DNA of 64,000 bases from Bacilli bacterium. GTDB lineage: Bacteria; Bacillota_I; Bacilli_A; RF39; UBA660. The notes below the pieces were generated by a model, which was not told the DNA's origin, did not search any database, and was given only the letters and a program-made list of their open reading frames with translations. The stretch is from contig JAFZKH010000008.1 in assembly GCA_017553685.1 (NCBI GenBank), positions 3,256 to 67,255 of the forward strand. Reading direction: 5' to 3'. This document shows, piece by piece, positions 5,539 to 13,233 of the stretch. The translations under genes were made by a program, and so were the position numbers. Positions within the stretch are counted from its first letter, which is position 1; each line of letters opens with the position of its first letter.

Positions 5539-6730
5539 ACTATTCATAATAACTTTATTATTATTTATTCCTGCTTTTAAAGGGGTAAAAGCCCTTGATA
5601 TTTACCTATTTTATAGTGATACATGTCCTCATTGTAAGGCAGAAGAAAAGTTCTTAAATTCATACCTTAAATCAAATGAAGATATAGTACTTCATACATA
5701 TGAAGTAACTAATAATAGTGATAATGCTAAACTATTAGAAGTAGTATCTAAAGATATTATGGGAAAGAGTGCTATAGGAGTTCCTTATACTGTTATAGGG
5801 GAAAAAGTTATATCTGGTTATATGGATGATTCAACTACTGGAGAAGAAATTAAATCTTATATAAATATATATAGAAGTCAAGAATTTACTGATAGAGTAG
5901 GAGAATATATTAAAACTGGAAAAATAATTAAAAAAGATGAACCAGTTGAACCTAAGAAAAAAGATAATAAAGTATCATTTAAAGTATTTGGTAAAAAAAT
6001 AACTGTTAATCCTAGAACAGTTTCATTACCACTTATATCAATAGTACTTGGTTTAGTAGATGGTTTTAATCCATGTGCTATGTGGATATTACTTTTCTTA
6101 ATAACAATGTTATTTAATATGAAAGATAGAAAGAAAATGTGGATCTTAGGATTAACATTTATACTTACTTCAGGACTAGTTTATTTGGCATTTATGTTAT
6201 CTTGGTTTAATATAGCATCATTTGTACCTAAACTATCTTTATTAAGATTTATAGTAGCTATTGTGGCTTTAGCAGCAGGTATATTTAATATGAATAATTA
6301 TATTAAATCTTTATCTAAAGATGATGGTTGTGAAGTAGTAGATGATAAGAAAAGAAAAAAGATTATAAATAGAATTATAAAAATTACATCTAGTAAGAAA
6401 TTTATATTTGCTTTACTTGGAATAATGTTATTAGCTGCTACAGTTAATTTAATAGAATTAATGTGTTCTATAGGTATACCATTAATATTTACTCAAATAT
6501 TATCTATGAATGATTTGCATGGTTTTAAATATATGATTTATATGTTTATATATATAGTATTCTTCTTATTAGATGATATATTAATATTTGTTATATCTAT
6601 GAAGACTTTAAAGGTAACAGGTATATCTACTAAGTATACTAAATACTCTCATTTAATTGGAGGAATTATTATGCTTATAATAGGTATTTTAATGCTTTTA
6701 AAACCAGAATTATTAATGTTTAATTTTTAA
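5522..6730 (+). CDS. thiol:disulfide interchange protein: exported thioredoxin domain fused to a CcdA/DsbD-type transmembrane domain
   Basis: N-terminal signal/anchor, then YSDTCPHCKAEEKFL (Trx CxxC). The polytopic C-terminal half has the CcdA/DsbD-beta signature cysteines (FNPCAMW; LMCSIGIP). It overlaps the upstream trx gene, suggesting translational coupling. Confidence 0.6.
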   Translation: MKKIIRLFIITLLLFIPAFKGVKALDIYLFYSDTCPHCKAEEKFLNSYLKSNEDIVLHTYEVTNNSDNAKLLEVVSKDIMGKSAIGVPYTVIGEKVISGYMDDSTTGEEIKSYINIYRSQEFTDRVGEYIKTGKIIKKDEPVEPKKKDNKVSFKVFGKKITVNPRTVSLPLISIVLGLVDGFNPCAMWILLFLITMLFNMKDRKKMWILGLTFILTSGLVYLAFMLSWFNIASFVPKLSLLRFIVAIVALAAGIFNMNNYIKSLSKDDGCEVVDDKKRKKIINRIIKITSSKKFIFALLGIMLLAATVNLIELMCSIGIPLIFTQILSMNDLHGFKYMIYMFIYIVFFLLDDILIFVISMKTLKVTGISTKYTKYSHLIGGIIMLIIGILMLLKPELLMFNF

Positions 6731-7465: not shown

Positions 7466-7492
7466 AAAACATCATTAAGATGTTTTTTTATT
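7466..7492. terminator. bidirectional terminator hairpin
   Basis: AAAAAACATC attaa GATGTTTTTTT lies between convergent genes. Confidence 0.5.
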
Positions 7493-8048
7493 TGAATTTA
7501 TCCATATTAATTATATTTATTTTATTAGATACATTTGGGTAATAAGTAGAGAATACAAAATCAAATGTAAATATTGTAAGAAGTATTATAACTATTGTTA
7601 ATAATACTTTTTTATTATATTTATCTATTATCTTTTTAACTAGAGGAACTAGTTTATATATTACTAGTAATCCTGCAAGTCCGAATGCTATTGAATATGG
7701 TAAACATATTTTACCATTAATATTAAATGGTTTATTTGTATAATTCCACCAAGACATACCATAAGTGTATTCTAAGTATGTGCTTGTTAAATACTCTGAC
7801 ACAGTACATATAACAAATGATCCCATAAATATAAACCACTTTTTATCTCTATATTCATATAAAAGAATATATATTAAGAATGCTCCTGATCCATATATAG
7901 GTAGCCATGGACCATGCATTGTTCCACTGTTGATTAGATTACCATTCTTCATAAATTCCCAAAGAACTTCCCAAAACCAACCAATGAAACAACAAATTAA
8001 GAAAAGTAGGTTATATTCTATAAATTTATTTGTTCCATTCTTTTTCAT
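7488..8048 (-). CDS. polytopic membrane protein, GPxLPIYG-motif family (possibly the 'putative ABC-transporter type IV'/CmpB-like family)
   Basis: The longer tracked ORF runs through tRNA-His. An internal start ATG at 8048-8046 is preceded by AGGTGG at a 4-nt spacing (MKKNGTNKF...). It shares GPWLPIYG-type and surrounding motifs with the paralog at 10988-11668. Confidence 0.45.
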   Translation of the reverse strand: MKKNGTNKFIEYNLLFLICCFIGWFWEVLWEFMKNGNLINSGTMHGPWLPIYGSGAFLIYILLYEYRDKKWFIFMGSFVICTVSEYLTSTYLEYTYGMSWWNYTNKPFNINGKICLPYSIAFGLAGLLVIYKLVPLVKKIIDKYNKKVLLTIVIILLTIFTFDFVFSTYYPNVSNKINIINMDKFK

Positions 8049-8126
8049 GTAACCACCTATAAAAATTATATCATAAATTACTTGTATATTTAAAAAATAT
8101 GTGTTATATTTAATAAGTAATTTCAT

Positions 8127-8203
8127 GGCGGAATTGGTGAAGTGGTTAACACGGCAGATTGTGGCTCTGTTATGCAAGGGTTCGACTCCCTTATTTCGCC
8201 CCA
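8127..8203 (+). tRNA. tRNA-His (anticodon GTG)
   Basis: Manual cloverleaf: acceptor GCGGAAT/ATTTCGC; anticodon stem GCAGA/TCTGT with loop TTGTGGC; T-arm AAGGG-TTCGACT-CCCTT. An encoded G-1 (8127) pairs with discriminator C73, which is diagnostic for tRNA-His. The 3' CCA is encoded. Confidence 0.85.
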
Positions 8204-8212
8204 TTTGAAAAA

Positions 8213-8238
8213 ATCGAACCAATAGGTTCGTTTTTTTT
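8213..8238 (+). terminator. rho-independent terminator after tRNA-His
   Basis: CGAACC aata GGTTCG followed by TTTTTTTT. A second hairpin AAGGCAT/ATGCCTT plus TTTTATT lies at 8245-8268. Confidence 0.6.
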
Positions 8239-8279
8239 GTATTTAAGGCATTATGCCTTTTTTATTGCAAAAAAAGTTA

Positions 8280-8308
8280 TGTAGTAAAATTGTAGTATTT
8301 TTGTAGTT
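8280..8308 (+). repeat. three phased direct repeats TGTAGTA/TGTAGTA/TGTAGTT with 11-bp period, abutting a promoter
   Basis: Copies at 8280-8286, 8291-8297 and 8302-8308. They sit immediately upstream of the -35 TTGACA (8314-8319). Confidence 0.5.
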
Positions 8309-8313
8309 TTCTA

Positions 8314-8342
8314 TTGACAAGCAATTTTTATGGTGATATTAT
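8314..8342 (+). promoter_or_regulatory. sigma-A type promoter (TTGACA-17-TGaTATTAT, extended -10)
   Basis: -35 at 8314-8319 and -10 at 8337-8342 with TG at -15/-14. It lies 20 nt upstream of the RBS GAGGTGAGG of the RHH-NUDIX gene. Confidence 0.5.
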
Positions 8343-8362
8343 CTAGTCAAGAGGTGAGGAAA

Positions 8363-8950
8363 ATGGCTAATAAAACAAGTGCTATTAACATTCAAGTAGA
8401 TAGTGATGTTAAACAAGATGCAACATTAGTATTAACAGAATTAGGTTTATCAATGAGTTCTGCAATTAATTTATTCTTAAAACAAGTAGTTAAGAAGAAT
8501 GGACTTCCTTTTGCAGTTACTAATGTTGTAGATACTAAAAAGATATTAGATGTAGTATGTGCATTAATAATGAAAGATGGTAAATGTTTAATTGCAAGAA
8601 GAAACAAAGATGATCATTTAAAAGGTAGATGGGAATTTCCTGGAGGAAGAAGACAAGGTCTTGAAGATGAAAAGAAAACTCTTGAAAGAGCATTCAACGA
8701 AGTTCTTGGAATTAAAGCAAATATTAATGATTATTTAACACATAGTATATGTGAATATCCAGGACATATAGTAGATCTTAAAATCTATGAATGTGATTAT
8801 GTAAGTGGTGAATTTAATTCGCCAATACATTCAGAATATAAGTGGGTTAATATAGAAGAATTATTAGATTATGATTTAGCAGATGCTGATGTGATACTAT
8901 CAAAATTTATTATTAGAAAATACATTGAAGAGAGTAGGAGTCAAAAATGA
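8363..8950 (+). CDS. RelB/DinJ-type (ribbon-helix-helix) antitoxin-like domain fused to a NUDIX domain with a degenerate Nudix box
   Basis: The N-terminal ~85 aa (MANKTSAINIQVDSDVKQDATLVLTELGLSMSSAINLFLKQVVKKNGLPFAV) resemble the DinJ/RelB family. The C-terminal half has a Nudix fold signature (GRWEFPGGRRQGLEDEKKTLERAFNEVLGI), but REUxEE is replaced by RAFNEV, so the two catalytic Glu residues are missing. The start ATG at 8363 follows GAGGTGAGG. Confidence 0.6.
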   Translation: MANKTSAINIQVDSDVKQDATLVLTELGLSMSSAINLFLKQVVKKNGLPFAVTNVVDTKKILDVVCALIMKDGKCLIARRNKDDHLKGRWEFPGGRRQGLEDEKKTLERAFNEVLGIKANINDYLTHSICEYPGHIVDLKIYECDYVSGEFNSPIHSEYKWVNIEELLDYDLADADVILSKFIIRKYIEESRSQK

Positions 8951-9360
8951 AAGTAGTAGAAGTAGTAGCAGCAGTTATTAAAAAAGAAAACAAGATATTA
9001 GCAACTCAAAGAGGATATGGACACTTTGAAGGAATGTGGGAATTTCCAGGTGGAAAACCTGAAACAGGTGAAACTAAAGAGGAAGCTTTAGTTAGAGAAA
9101 TTAAAGAAGAAATGGATGCTAATATTAAAGTAGATGATTTTATATGCACAGTAGAATATGATTATAAGGATCCTGATTTTCATTTAATTATGCATACTTA
9201 TTTTTGTGAATTATTAGATGATCATATGGAACTTGTATATCATGATGAAGATAGATTAGAACATAAAGCAATGAAATGGCTTACTAAAGAAGAATTAGGC
9301 TCAGTTGAATGGCTAGGAGCAGACATAGAAATAGTTAATGTATTGGAAAATTTATTATAG
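8947..9360 (+). CDS. NUDIX hydrolase (MutT-like, canonical Nudix box)
   Basis: GMWEFPGGKPETGETKEEALVREIKEEMD matches GX5EX7REUXEEXGU. There is a 4-nt ATGA overlap with the upstream gene. Confidence 0.75.
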   Translation: MKVVEVVAAVIKKENKILATQRGYGHFEGMWEFPGGKPETGETKEEALVREIKEEMDANIKVDDFICTVEYDYKDPDFHLIMHTYFCELLDDHMELVYHDEDRLEHKAMKWLTKEELGSVEWLGADIEIVNVLENLL

Positions 9361-9372
9361 AGGTGGTATAAT

Positions 9373-9693
9373 ATGGTTAATCTTAAGAAACTTAGCGAGG
9401 AAGTATATCAAAATAAAGTTAAACATAATTTTAATACAACAAATATTGAAATGGAATTTTGTTTAGCTTATGGAGAACTTGGTGAGGCATATATAGCGTA
9501 TCTTAAGCAAAAAGAAGATTTAGGGGAAGAACTAGCAGATGTAGCAATATATCTACTTGAAATATCGCACATGCTTAATGTTGATCTAGAAAAAGAGATA
9601 TTACATAAGATTGATAAGAATAGTAAAAGGGTTTATAAAGAAAATTCGAAAGGAGTTCTTGTTAAGGAAGAAGAACTAAAAACAGAGGTTTAA
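9373..9693 (+). CDS. MazG-like nucleotide pyrophosphohydrolase (small all-alpha NTP-PPase)
   Basis: 106 aa. The EELGEELADVAIYLLEI motif is typical of the MazG/YpjD-like family. RBS GGTGG. Confidence 0.55.
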   Translation: MVNLKKLSEEVYQNKVKHNFNTTNIEMEFCLAYGELGEAYIAYLKQKEDLGEELADVAIYLLEISHMLNVDLEKEILHKIDKNSKRVYKENSKGVLVKEEELKTEV

Positions 9694-9694
9694 A

Positions 9695-10936
9695 ATGGAA
9701 TTTAGAGAAAAGAAATTAAAAGAACTATTCAAAAATTATAGTATATCAACATTAGATTCAATCAGCTTTGTGTTAGGGGAAGGAAAATCAAAAAACAAAG
9801 ACATTTTAGAGGCATTATCAGATGCTTATAGCGAAAAAAGTGAAATTATTATTAGAGATACTTCTGAGGAAGCAGTAACTAAAAATTTCACATTAGAAGA
9901 AGTAAAAGAAGATCTATTTAGAATGCCTGATTACGCTTCAGATTTAATTAATAAGGAAATTAGAAAAGGATTTTTTAAAATTCAAAATAGAATAAAAAAG
10001 AGTACTAATGACGAAGAAATAGAAAGACTACAAAAAGTATTAAGTGAAATATCTGGTTTTCTAAATAATGTTAAAGAAACTGAACAAACAAAGATTAAAA
10101 TAGATGATGAAATTCAAAAAGAATATTTAGATAGAAAACATAATACATGGATTGATGATAATTTTAGTGATGAAGAATTAGAAGATTTCTTTAAGAAATT
10201 TGGTGTTAATGAACTTGAAAGAGTACACAATTGCTTTTGCTGTGCATATGATTATTTTTCACATAGATTCTTTGATATTTTAAGTAGAGTTCAATATAAG
10301 ATGCTTGAAGAAAAAGGACCTGATAAACCAACAAAAATGCATGATTATAATTGCATAGTTAATAAACTTGGTGTATTAACTGATAAAGAAATAGAATTAC
10401 TAAAGAGAGGATCAATTGATTCATTAAACTTTGCTCTTACAAAATCTAGAATAGATTCGGATTTTGATGAAGTAGTAAGAGCTTTCACATATTTATCTGA
10501 TTCTATTTTAAAAGAAGAAGAGTTTAGAGTAAGAGAAACCAATTCATTAAATAGATTATTCAAGAAACTTGATAGATATGATCAAATTGTACTTAGAATT
10601 ATTTTTGAGTATGCTGCTGGATATAATTTAGATAAAGAAAAGAACATGATTGAAGAATATATTGAAAACCCATATCTAAAAAAACTTGATCCATCAAAGA
10701 AATTATCTAGTCTTACAAATAAAGAGTTAGAATATTTACTTGAATTAGCTGAAAATGCTTTATCAGTTTTAAGTAGAGAATTTAATCCTGAATTAGGTGC
10801 TGAATTAAATGCAGTTTATTATTTTGAAGAAAGACTTGTTGAAGAAGTTGGTTTAAGAGAATCTTCAAAAGGAAAATATAATAATTTAAACAATAAAAAG
10901 AAAACTAAGAAAAGAAAAAATGTAAAAAAGATGTAA
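9695..10936 (+). CDS. hypothetical protein (413 aa, charged/helical, no recognised domain)
   Basis: Tightly coupled to the upstream gene with a 1-nt gap. It contains HNCFCCAYDY and several conserved-looking Cys/His residues but matches no family I can name. Confidence 0.4.
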   Translation: MEFREKKLKELFKNYSISTLDSISFVLGEGKSKNKDILEALSDAYSEKSEIIIRDTSEEAVTKNFTLEEVKEDLFRMPDYASDLINKEIRKGFFKIQNRIKKSTNDEEIERLQKVLSEISGFLNNVKETEQTKIKIDDEIQKEYLDRKHNTWIDDNFSDEELEDFFKKFGVNELERVHNCFCCAYDYFSHRFFDILSRVQYKMLEEKGPDKPTKMHDYNCIVNKLGVLTDKEIELLKRGSIDSLNFALTKSRIDSDFDEVVRAFTYLSDSILKEEEFRVRETNSLNRLFKKLDRYDQIVLRIIFEYAAGYNLDKEKNMIEEYIENPYLKKLDPSKKLSSLTNKELEYLLELAENALSVLSREFNPELGAELNAVYYFEERLVEEVGLRESSKGKYNNLNNKKKTKKRKNVKKM

Positions 10937-10987
10937 CTGATTAATTAGTTACATCTTTTTTATAATATAATAGAATTGGTGAACTGT

Positions 10988-11668
10988 ATGAGTATTTTTT
11001 TAACATGGGTATTTATATTTATACTAGGAAGTATAGCTGGATGGATTATAGAAATAATTTATAGAAAAATAAAGTTTGGTAAATTAGTTAATCCTGGTTT
11101 TTTAGTGGGTCCATATTTGCCTATATATGGATTTGGATTAGTATTTATTACTATATTCCATACTATATTAATGAGGTTTAATATTCATCCATTACTAATA
11201 ATATTATCAATGGGTATAATTATGACTATAATTGAATTATTAGGTGGATTATATTGTATTAAACAAAAAGTTAAATTATGGGATTATAGTGATGAATGGC
11301 TTAATTATAAGGGAATTATATGCCCTCATTATACATTACTTTGGATTTTGGCAGGAGCCATTTATTACTTTTTCTTATATGATCCGCTTATATATGCTAT
11401 AAACTGGTTTAATGATAATATATCTTTTTCATATGTAATAGGAATATTTTCAGGATTTTTATTAATAGATTTCTTTTATTCATCTAAGTTATATCTTAAG
11501 ATTAGAAAATATGCTAAAAAGAATAATATTGTTGTTAGATATGAAAAACTTAAATTACATATAAAAGAAGAAACTAGGAAAGCAGAAGAAAAATATTTCT
11601 TCTTATTTCCATTTAGACAAAGTAGAAAACTTATAGAATACCTAGATAGTTATAGAGATAGGAAATAA
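10988..11668 (+). CDS. polytopic membrane protein, GPxLPIYG-motif family (paralog of 7488-8048)
   Basis: The start ATG at 10988 follows GGTGA. GWIIEIIY...GPYLPIYGFG mirrors GWFWEVLWE...GPWLPIYGSG in the paralog. Confidence 0.45.
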   Translation: MSIFLTWVFIFILGSIAGWIIEIIYRKIKFGKLVNPGFLVGPYLPIYGFGLVFITIFHTILMRFNIHPLLIILSMGIIMTIIELLGGLYCIKQKVKLWDYSDEWLNYKGIICPHYTLLWILAGAIYYFFLYDPLIYAINWFNDNISFSYVIGIFSGFLLIDFFYSSKLYLKIRKYAKKNNIVVRYEKLKLHIKEETRKAEEKYFFLFPFRQSRKLIEYLDSYRDRK

Positions 11669-11670
11669 AT

Positions 11671-12741
11671 ATGACAATAGTAGATTATATTAATAATTAT
11701 GGAATGTATTCTTTTAGTGATAAATCATTTAATGAAGTAGATAATGGAATATTATCTCTTTTAGCATACCTTAATTTTTCATCTATTACTGATAATAATA
11801 GAAAAAAGGTTAGATTAGAAGATGCTGCTATAGAATTTTTGTCACAAAATAGAGATACTGTTATAGAAGATGTACCTGCTATTAAAGAAGCAATTAAAGT
11901 ATTAGATTTACTTAAGAGTACAAAAAGATATAGAGATATTCTTATATATAACTGCAAGTTTAATTATTCAAATGAGAGTCAATTTTTATGTATTACATTT
12001 GAACTTAATAGAAAACTAGTTTATGTAGGTTTTGGTGGTACAGATAAATTAGTTAGTGGATGGATAGAGGATGCTAAAATGAGTTATGAGTATCCAGTTA
12101 CAGCCCATGTTAATGCTATAAAATATTTAAATAAATACTTTAGATTTAATAGAAAAAGAATAAAACTTGGTGGTCATTCTAAAGGAGGGAATATTGCATT
12201 AGTAGCAGCCCTAGGATGCAAAAAAGGTATTTATAAAAGAATTATAAATGTATATAGTAATGATGGACAAGGTTTAAGAAAAGAAGATATGAATACTCCA
12301 AGATATATAGATTTAGATAAAAAATATGTTCATATATGTCCTTATAATTCTATTATAGGTATGCTTTTATATCATGATCCATATTTTATAAGTGTTGATA
12401 CTGATAAACCTGTTGGTTTTTCTCATAATATAACTACTTGGTTAGTAGAGGATAATCATTTTAAAACAAGAGAAGTAAGTAGATTTAGTAAAATATTAGA
12501 TGAAGGATTTACTAAATGGTTAGATAAATATGATTATGCTGCTAGAAAAGATTTTGTTGAAAGTATAGATAAACTAATGGCAGATAATGGTATAGTTACA
12601 ATAGTAGATTTTAAAAAGAATAAAAAACTTGTATTTGAAGTAGCTAAAGCTGCTAAAGGTATGAATCCAATAGTTAAAGAAATGACTATGGATTTACTTA
12701 AAATAATAGTATCCCTTAATATAGAAAATAGATTTATGTAA
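11671..12741 (+). CDS. alpha/beta-hydrolase, lipase-like DUF2974 (Mbeg1-like) family
   Basis: The N-terminus IVDYINNYGMYSFSDKSFNEVDNGILSLLAYLNF matches the DUF2974 start. A GHSKGG nucleophile elbow (GxSxG) is present. Confidence 0.55.
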   Translation: MTIVDYINNYGMYSFSDKSFNEVDNGILSLLAYLNFSSITDNNRKKVRLEDAAIEFLSQNRDTVIEDVPAIKEAIKVLDLLKSTKRYRDILIYNCKFNYSNESQFLCITFELNRKLVYVGFGGTDKLVSGWIEDAKMSYEYPVTAHVNAIKYLNKYFRFNRKRIKLGGHSKGGNIALVAALGCKKGIYKRIINVYSNDGQGLRKEDMNTPRYIDLDKKYVHICPYNSIIGMLLYHDPYFISVDTDKPVGFSHNITTWLVEDNHFKTREVSRFSKILDEGFTKWLDKYDYAARKDFVESIDKLMADNGIVTIVDFKKNKKLVFEVAKAAKGMNPIVKEMTMDLLKIIVSLNIENRFM

Positions 12742-12744
12742 TAA

Positions 12745-12771
12745 TTAGCACTCTCTATTGACAAGTGCTAA
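12745..12771 (+). promoter_or_regulatory. CIRCE-like HrcA operator (TTAGCACTC-N9-AAGTGCTAA, 17/18 match to consensus)
   Basis: An inverted repeat, TTAGCACTC tctattgac AAGTGCTAA, overlaps the -35 TTGACA of the hsp20 promoter. Confidence 0.55.
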
Positions 12772-12786
12772 TGATAGTGCTATACT
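12758..12786 (+). promoter_or_regulatory. sigma-A promoter TTGACA-17-TATACT upstream of hsp20
   Basis: -35 at 12758-12763 and -10 at 12781-12786. Confidence 0.5.
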
Positions 12787-12846: not shown

Positions 12847-13233
12847 ATGATGTTACCAGATAGATTTTTTGATGATATGTTTTTAGATGCTCCAAGAGGT
12901 CCAAAGGAAAGAATGGATTGTGATATCTATGAAGAAGATGGTAAATATGTTGTAGAAGCTTCTGTATATGGATTTGATAAAAATGATATCAAAATAGAAA
13001 CTGAAGATGGATCTATTATTATTACTGCTGAAAAGCATGAAGATGAAGTAGATAATAGCAACAAAAAATATCTAAGAAGAGAAAGACATTCTTCATCAAG
13101 TATTCAAAGAGCATTCTACCTAGGAGATATAGATGAATCATCTATTAAAGCTTCATTTAATAATGGAGTTCTTAAAATTGAAGCATCTAAGAAAGAAATA
13201 GAATCAAATAGAAAACAAATTGATATTGACTAA
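12847..13233 (+). CDS. Hsp20/alpha-crystallin family small heat-shock protein
   Basis: 128 aa. The alpha-crystallin domain pattern is present (KYVVEASVYGFDKNDIKIE...GVLKIEASK). RBS AAGGGAGAG. Confidence 0.85.
   Translation: MMLPDRFFDDMFLDAPRGPKERMDCDIYEEDGKYVVEASVYGFDKNDIKIETEDGSIIITAEKHEDEVDNSNKKYLRRERHSSSSIQRAFYLGDIDESSIKASFNNGVLKIEASKKEIESNRKQIDID

Follow-up and report, generated by a model that had tools for sequence, protein, structure and literature searches.

A RelB/DinJ-type ribbon-helix-helix protein fused to a degenerate NudG/MutT-like Nudix domain, a candidate nucleotide-responsive regulator of a pyrophosphatase operon in uncultured Bacilli

Some Nudix domains serve as sensors and do not function as catalysts, as in NrtR, DBC1, TRPM2 and MutY. 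To our knowledge all Nudix-sensor transcription factors so far are of ADP-ribose-pyrophosphatase origin and carry a winged helix. A review of the Nudix clan likewise names NrtR-type proteins as the only case of transcriptional regulation among the non-enzymatic roles of the fold (PMC5389931). NrtR represses adjacent genes of related metabolism, and in the family member Slr1690 restoration of the Nudix box resulted in a 600-fold gain of activity (PMC2330246).

The stretch of DNA analysed here (64,000 nucleotides, referred to as the window) contains a gene of 195 codons (8363-8950, forward strand), whose product joins a ribbon-helix-helix (RHH) domain to a degenerate Nudix domain. Pfam and NCBIfam matches above their cutoffs bear out this fusion, which an earlier note had proposed from the sequence, and the assignment is further supported by the family alignment and by the ratio of non-synonymous to synonymous substitutions (dN/dS). 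The reading frame starts at ATG 8363, 4 nt downstream of a ribosome-binding site read from the sequence (GAGGTGAGG, 8350-8358, forward strand) and kept in related loci, and it terminates with the TGA at 8950. Homologues use the same start methionine. A longer reading frame beginning at 8330 is unlikely, because the −10 box of the promoter would then fall inside it.

The regulator shares with NrtR (including BtAraR and the NadQ-type proteins) a basic design in which a Nudix domain of perturbed signature responds to a small effector, a linked module contacts DNA, and neighbouring genes of related metabolism are the (for the regulator, predicted) targets of repression (PMC2330246). Beyond this the two differ in every respect that we compared. 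The Nudix domain of NrtR is N-terminal and resembles ADP-ribose pyrophosphatases, whereas that of the regulator is C-terminal and of MutT/NudG type. NrtR has a C-terminal winged helix; the regulator lacks a winged helix and has an N-terminal RHH domain instead. NrtR operators are located 5′ of NAD-metabolism genes, whereas the regulator module contains no NAD genes, and the sole operator-like site in the window precedes the regulator's own NTP-pyrophosphatase operon. With these differences in Nudix subfamily, type of DNA-binding module, order of the domains and regulon, the regulator is not a relative of NrtR. The NrtR logic invoked in the earlier note survives as a common design of dead Nudix and DNA-binding domain, but ADP-ribose, the effector that frees NrtR from its DNA, is an unlikely ligand given that there is neither a winged helix nor any NAD gene. 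When the literature and databases were searched for Nudix domains joined to RelB/DinJ, RHH or MazG regulators, the RHH-Nudix architecture was not found described. The fusion probably arose independently. If so, Nudix-sensor regulators would have been reached by a second path of their own, starting from a MutT/NudG-type (d)NTP hydrolase and an antitoxin-type RHH domain.

The DNA-binding domain occupies residues 1-59 (8363-8539, forward strand) and was assigned to the RelB/DinJ type using Pfam, TIGRFAM, a DinJ structure and an AF2 model. Pfam RelB (PF04221) matched residues 6-59 with 44.3 bits (cutoff 22.4, E=1.7e-11), and the NCBIfam model RelB_DinJ (TIGR02384) matched with 63.2 bits (cutoff 45.65, E=2e-17). 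Profile searches thus assign an RHH domain to the N-terminus, and HMMER aligned the DinJ structure 9lew onto residues 4-53. Judged by these profiles the domain is a genuine member of the RelB/DinJ family. The family placement given in the earlier note was correct, but the domain comprises about 59 residues and not the 85 suggested there. The β-strand KTSAINIQVD is nearly invariant, with at least 119 of the 121 family members agreeing at each position except position 12, where V and I alternate. AF2, supplied with an alignment of 119 sequences, placed the RHH helices at residues 14-26 and 31-46 at low confidence (pLDDT 45-66) and left the N-terminal strand disordered, which is the usual outcome when a single chain of an obligate dimer is modelled. 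Only positions 2-55 of the 82 in the RelB profile were matched. The toxin-binding tail is absent from the regulator, and from about residue 60 onwards a Nudix fold takes the place of the toxin-neutralizing segment.

This C-terminal domain (residues 60-185; 8540-8917, forward strand) is a Nudix fold of MutT/NudG type that is predicted to be non-catalytic. It matched Pfam NUDIX_4 over residues 65-176 (53.9 bits, cutoff 35) and Pfam NUDIX (37.4 bits, cutoff 21.1), the two matches together covering residues 63-176, and the same 119-sequence alignment yielded a confident AF2 model, with pLDDT mostly >90. Structure prediction therefore gave a confident Nudix fold beside RHH helices of low confidence in a monomer model. 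The fold and the Pfam NUDIX match confirm membership of the Nudix superfamily, as had been claimed for the C-terminus. The best NCBIfam Nudix models were NudG (PRK10546) and MutT, both well below cutoff (NF007834, the NudG equivalog, 89.3 bits against 156; TIGR00586, MutT, 53 against 97.9). Foldseek returned BdRppH, NudG/Orf135, the Bacteroides fragilis CTP pyrophosphohydrolase and Mycobacterium smegmatis MutT2 as best matches, the MutT2 entries including complexes with dCTP and 5-methyl-dCTP. NudG (Orf135), MutT2 and BdRppH are standalone proteins with an intact REUxEE motif, whereas the regulator lacks two of the catalytic glutamates. In our reading the domain is the descendant of an active NudG/MutT-like (d)NTP pyrophosphohydrolase. 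The structural matches also included MutY, by its inert Nudix domain. Like the regulator, MutY reuses a non-catalytic MutT-like Nudix domain for recognition beside a DNA-binding/processing domain; however, the MutY domain reads 8-oxoG in duplex DNA as part of a glycosylase, with no RHH domain, operator or regulatory role.

The degenerate Nudix box (GRRQGLEDEKKTLERAFNEVLGI, 8645-8713, forward strand) was delimited using family and outgroup alignments. It runs from G95 through RRQGL to E101, continues through DEKKTLE to R109, A110, F, N, E113 and V114, and closes with L-G-I. The signature of active Nudix enzymes, GX5EX7REUXEEXGU, contains three glutamates within REUxEE, and the regulator fails it, having R109-A-F-N-E-V at this place. 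HMMER alignments to NudG (2rrk), BdRppH (3ees) and Staphylococcus aureus MutT (5x1x) set the segment LERAFNEVLGI against LVRELREELGI, which puts A110 and V114 at the first and third REUxEE glutamate positions. We take these positions to be those of MutT E53 and E57. In MutT, mutation of these two residues is the most damaging, and their loss costs ∼10^4-10^5 in kcat. The box keeps E101, R109 and E113 (the equivalent of MutT E56), while the lysine corresponding to MutT K39 is changed to arginine (R96). The earlier statement that the catalytic glutamates are replaced (RAFNEV) thus applies to A110 and V114, but not to E113; E101 and R109 are likewise retained.

These exchanges are fixed in the family. 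Position 110 is alanine in 116 of 121 sequences and serine or threonine in the others, position 114 is V, L or I in 117 of 121, and the lysine following GG is arginine in all 121. In contrast, among the 99 nearest standalone Nudix proteins a glutamate is found at position 110 in 98 and at position 114 in 98, and a lysine at position 96 in 96. When the regulator was compared with its nearest active relative (P0127), identity dropped to 6 of 23 residues (26%) in the box against 55 of 101 (54%) in the rest of the domain, and with identity lowest inside the box the usual Nudix pattern is inverted. WEFPGG, H156, W161 and D176 of the xAD motif are invariant in the family and also conserved in active relatives; D102 and E103 are invariant in the regulator family only. 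The substrate-contact residues of NudG are presumably E33, R72, R77 and D118.

Regulators from different genomes are 79-98% identical. Pairwise Nei-Gojobori estimates of dN/dS were ∼0.1 for the RHH part and the Nudix part alike, and 0.02-0.03 in the closest pairs. These values point to strong purifying selection on both domains and argue that the Nudix domain is a maintained pseudoenzyme rather than a decaying one.

A maintained domain that retains E101, R109 and E113, and in which D102 and E103 are invariant in this family only, could also be one that is still an enzyme, acting through a remodelled metal site (E101, D102, E103 and E113) and coupled to a DNA-binding domain that provides autoregulation. 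Activity does persist in some NrtR members whose signature is intact (PMC2330246). We consider a bifunctional protein of this kind very unlikely: the replaced positions are glutamates in 98 of the 99 nearest relatives, the box is the most diverged segment of the domain, and the perturbed box of Slr1690 gave barely detectable activity (PMC2330246).

Upstream of the regulator gene, a tRNA-His gene (GTG, 8128-8203) is followed by two terminator-like hairpins (8215-8259, forward strand), which are predicted to shield the module from upstream transcription. Beyond them lies a putative operator of three direct repeats, TGTAGTA, TGTAGTA and TGTAGTT (8280-8308, forward strand), that is conserved in related loci. 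The repeats start at 8280, 8291 and 8302, and this 11-bp period places them on one helix face. The final repeat ends 5 bp 5′ of the −35 box of a sigma-70-type promoter (8314-8342, forward strand), which consists of TTGACA at 8314, a 17-bp spacer and a TG-extended −10 box, TATTAT. The promoter matches the consensus at 11 of 12 positions, and its position is kept in related loci.

Within the window the three-repeat pattern matched once, against 0.01 matches expected by chance. A two-repeat pattern matched at 8280-8308 alone, and a search for weaker copies across the 64 kb found none. Of 24 loci compared (the window and 23 related loci, which span 7-12.6 kb), all but L019 had exactly one copy of the triple repeat, always 7-9 bp from TTGAC, and the DNA farther upstream is unrelated between genomes. 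In two loci (L020 and L023) an extra module gene is found 5′ of the regulator, and operator and promoter now precede that gene. For a metagenome-wide operator scan we examined 120 stretches among the matches listed; three had operator, promoter and module genes, and all three were located 5′ of an RHH-Nudix gene. No module gene accompanied the other operator-matching stretches among these 120.

With its core of [A/T]TGTAG the operator is similar to the hexad [A/T]TGT[A/C]A that was defined experimentally for RelB of E. coli, of which the last base is least critical and on which dimers bind along one helix face (PMC2812701). RelB/DinJ sites are paired palindromic half-sites, whereas the operator described here is composed of three direct copies. 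The near-invariance of the RHH strand fits the invariance of the operator motif. Together this comparative evidence argues strongly that the regulator binds its own promoter region, and the conserved triple-repeat operator abutting the promoter lends strong, if indirect, support to the regulatory role that had been suggested for the protein. The strength of the promoter and the general behaviour of RHH proteins would favour repression. Activation would also be possible, since the operator is positioned 5′ of the −35 box and not over the −10 box or the transcription start.

Across loci the core of the module consists of three genes, encoding the regulator, a MazG-like protein and an acidic helical protein. 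In the window an accessory active Nudix hydrolase gene (8947-9360, forward strand; assigned by Pfam) is inserted after the regulator gene, with start and stop codons overlapping in ATGA. As had been noted earlier, its REIKEE motif is intact. An adjacent active Nudix gene was found in 11 of the 23 related loci, sometimes 3′ of the MazG-like gene. The possibility that the dead Nudix domain is a recent tandem copy of this neighbour was rejected, as the two are 28% identical and the dead domain is 42-50% identical to standalone relatives.

The more constant partner is a MazG-like all-alpha NTP pyrophosphatase resembling DCTPP1 (9373-9693, forward strand). It is identified by a sub-cutoff match to Pfam MazG-like (E=5.3e-5), a weak best PDB match to dCTP pyrophosphatase 1 (E=4.8e-4) and a PHROG pyrophosphatase match (2.9e-10). 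Partners of ∼100 residues, 60-84% identical, are encoded in 22 of the 23 related loci. Their EELAD motif shows no variation, and GELGE, which forms the first acidic motif, is largely invariant. The earlier description of an operon of nucleotide pyrophosphohydrolases headed by the regulator is thus borne out, with the amendment that the adjacent Nudix gene is optional and the MazG-like gene is the conserved partner.

The third module gene (9695-10936, forward strand) encodes an acidic all-helical protein, connected by jackhmmer to its positional counterparts in the other loci. The family is represented in 21 of the 23 related loci; a ∼130-residue unit occurs one to three times in its members, giving totals of 135-413 residues (for example L001 7330-8094, L008 6901-7764, and L020 5561-5977 and 6913-7320); the protein in the window is an expanded member. 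It diverges fast: between the window and L001 the regulators are 98% identical and the third proteins are barely alignable (phmmer E=4e-16). A homologue search recovered four close relatives only, Pfam, PADLOC and PHROG assigned no family, and the AF2 model was unreliable (pLDDT 51). Sub-cutoff Pfam matches to RelA_AH_RIS (0.002) and SinI (0.07) were dismissed as noise. A 40-bp palindrome with perfect arms flanked by A and T runs (10923-10962) overlaps the end of the gene. It is the probable end of the operon, and judged from its sequence could terminate transcription in both directions, separating the module from the gene that follows.

One related locus (L019) carries an orphan copy of the regulator gene (5989-6579), located directly 3′ of trxA and having a degenerate box that reads RAFKEI. 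Within 6 kb of it we detected neither the TGTAG operator nor a MazG-like or third gene, so that its target, if any, would be elsewhere in the genome.

The organization of the module raises the question of its relation to toxin-antitoxin systems. Common to the regulator and the RelB/DinJ antitoxins are the homologous RHH domain, the position of the gene at the head of its operon, the autoregulatory layout and an operator core close to the relO hexad; sources in fact label the regulator as a RelB/DinJ antitoxin. It can accordingly be imagined that the dead Nudix domain replaces the disordered tail and binds and neutralizes the MazG-like or the third protein, the complex then acting as co-repressor as in the conditional cooperativity of RelBE. 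The compact gene order with its strong, apparently autoregulated promoter and translational coupling would suit such a system, as would the differing genomic contexts of the module and the rapid evolution of the third gene, and unchecked NTP pyrophosphatase activity could conceivably be toxic. However, Pfam, PADLOC and PHROG scans revealed no RelE, YafQ, ParE or other toxin family in the operon, and the upstream neighbour is tRNA-His. The segment with which RelB/DinJ antitoxins wrap their toxins is replaced by a folded Nudix domain, as seen in the truncated match to the RelB profile. The gene directly 3′ of the regulator varies between Nudix and MazG-like, a size range of 135-413 residues generated by unit duplication is unusual for a toxin, and the regulator survives alone in L019. 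We therefore regard an antitoxin-like function as unlikely. Lacking both a toxin gene and a toxin-binding tail, the regulator is not a canonical antitoxin, and the label carried by the family is probably misleading. The earlier idea of a degenerate toxin-antitoxin-derived system is weakened by the same two absences.

The reading that we consider moderately probable is that the protein is an autorepressor in which a dead NudG/MutT-like Nudix domain serves as nucleotide sensor and thereby induces the DCTPP1-like pyrophosphatase. The N-terminal RHH domain would dimerize and recognize the three TGTAGTA repeats, one helical turn apart, 5′ of the −35 box. Bound there, the regulator would repress its own operon, comprising the regulator, the optional active Nudix hydrolase, the MazG-like protein and the helical protein. 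The Nudix domain, having lost two essential glutamates and kept the fold and the substrate-side motifs, would bind but not hydrolyse a nucleotide; the most plausible candidate is a (d)NTP of cytosine type or another non-canonical one. We infer that occupancy is coupled allosterically to the RHH domain: a bound nucleotide would weaken operator binding, and the pyrophosphatase would be induced as its substrate accumulates. If this is true, the nucleotide pool would itself govern the transcription of genes for its sanitation, which is rare. The predicted operator and promoter and the protein are compact and clearly delimited, which makes the hypothesis open to direct test in vitro. Several observations run against the sensor-repressor model. 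The operator is placed 5′ of the −35 box, the RHH part of the AF2 model has low confidence, a metal site could be rebuilt from the retained E101, R109 and E113 together with D102 and E103, and the orphan regulator of L019 has neither operator nor partner genes within 6 kb.

As to the ligand, the best characterized homologue of the dead Nudix domain is Orf135/NudG and that of the MazG-like partner is DCTPP1/RS21-C6, and both of these enzymes are reported to hydrolyse dCTP and 5-methyl-dCTP (PMC10742078). This common activity may hint at the class of nucleotide involved; the hint is weak but convergent, as it is drawn from homologues at ∼30% identity for the Nudix domain and E ∼5e-4 for the MazG-like protein.

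The genomic company of the active relatives suggests further possibilities. The nearest of them, P0127, occurs in five loci (L024-L028) and is translationally coupled to a 327-residue HNH protein, an arrangement found at 859-2225 in L024. In P0129 an active Nudix domain is fused to a weak SAD/SRA match and an HNH domain. The combination of SRA and HNH domains is typical of modification-dependent (type IV) restriction enzymes, and by sequence the P0127 and P0129 arrangements resemble such enzymes with a Nudix partner. The PADLOC candidate PDC-S07, which is unvalidated, matched both the regulator Nudix domain (1.2e-34) and the neighbouring Nudix hydrolase (5.3e-44). The SRA-HNH-linked relatives, the PDC-S07 match and the 5-methyl-dCTP specificity of Orf135 and DCTPP1 hint at an inducible modified-nucleotide switch. 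Here the regulator would sense a cytosine nucleotide of phage or damage type, such as 5-methyl- or 5-hydroxymethyl-dCTP, free the RHH domain from the repeats and induce the DCTPP1-like enzyme, which would degrade the modified dNTP. The module would then be a ligand-gated system of dNTP sanitation and at the same time an anti-phage defence with the third protein at the phage interface. We hold this extension to be unlikely.

The same relatives can be read differently, with the dead Nudix domain sensing a protein or acting as a scaffold. It might oligomerize three RHH dimers, or it might be a decoy that is bound by a phage or host nucleotide hydrolase, resulting in derepression. The derepression of the Stl repressor by dUTPase provides a model for the decoy variant. 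Three repeats on the same face imply cooperative higher-order binding, and several family-specific surface residues are invariant (H85, R96, R97, H127, C130 and H135); the PDC-S07 match and the coupling of the nearest active relatives to HNH nucleases also accord with this reading. The kept substrate-side motifs are nonetheless better explained by nucleotide binding, PDC-S07 is an unvalidated candidate, and no relative was present on the viral contigs, phage records and plasmids searched. A role of this type appears distinctly unlikely to us, and the nucleotide-sensing autorepressor remains the reading that we prefer.

Full-length RHH-Nudix proteins formed a single cluster at 50% identity (P0121) among 1.84 billion representatives, the remaining strong matches being fragments or Nudix-only proteins. 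The family is abundant and at 90% identity comprises ∼1,000 clusters. Its close relatives come from metagenome-assembled genomes of uncultured rumen and gut Bacilli, whose labels are Bacilli, Erysipelotrichaceae, Mollicutes and Clostridium sp. CAG:433. Outside such uncultured Bacilli of gut and rumen the family does not appear to occur. No full-length relative of the regulator was present in the phage, plasmid and viral-contig collections searched; a phage match (H1) that seemed to cover both domains proved to be a plain RelB-like antitoxin of 104 residues. A metagenomic protein of 140 residues (P0122) has an active-type Nudix N-terminus joined at WEFPGG to a degenerate-box C-terminus of the regulator family, and this chimera could reflect recombination between adjacent paralogues or mis-assembly.

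In more distant genomes the module is found in wholly different neighbourhoods, indicating that it relocates as a unit. The window has ∼25-28% GC. A horizontal island was considered and rejected, as GC values in the region stay level between 22 and 30% and composition does not shift near the regulator gene. Two membrane paralogues of the PF06541 (CmpB-like) family flank the module on both sides (7488-8052, reverse strand; 10976-11668, forward strand), and likewise in L002 and L003, the loci most closely related to the window. A 244-residue minus-strand reading frame at 7488-8222 overlaps the tRNA-His gene, and its true start is therefore probably internal. Farther 3′ of the module are genes for an Mbeg1-like alpha/beta hydrolase (11671-12741; PF11187, 3.3e-52) and a putative Hsp20 (12847-13233), the latter with its own near-consensus promoter (12758-12786). 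These two genes are located within ∼3 kb 3′ of the third gene in the window, L001 and L002, and somewhat farther away in L003, and both are outside the conserved core.
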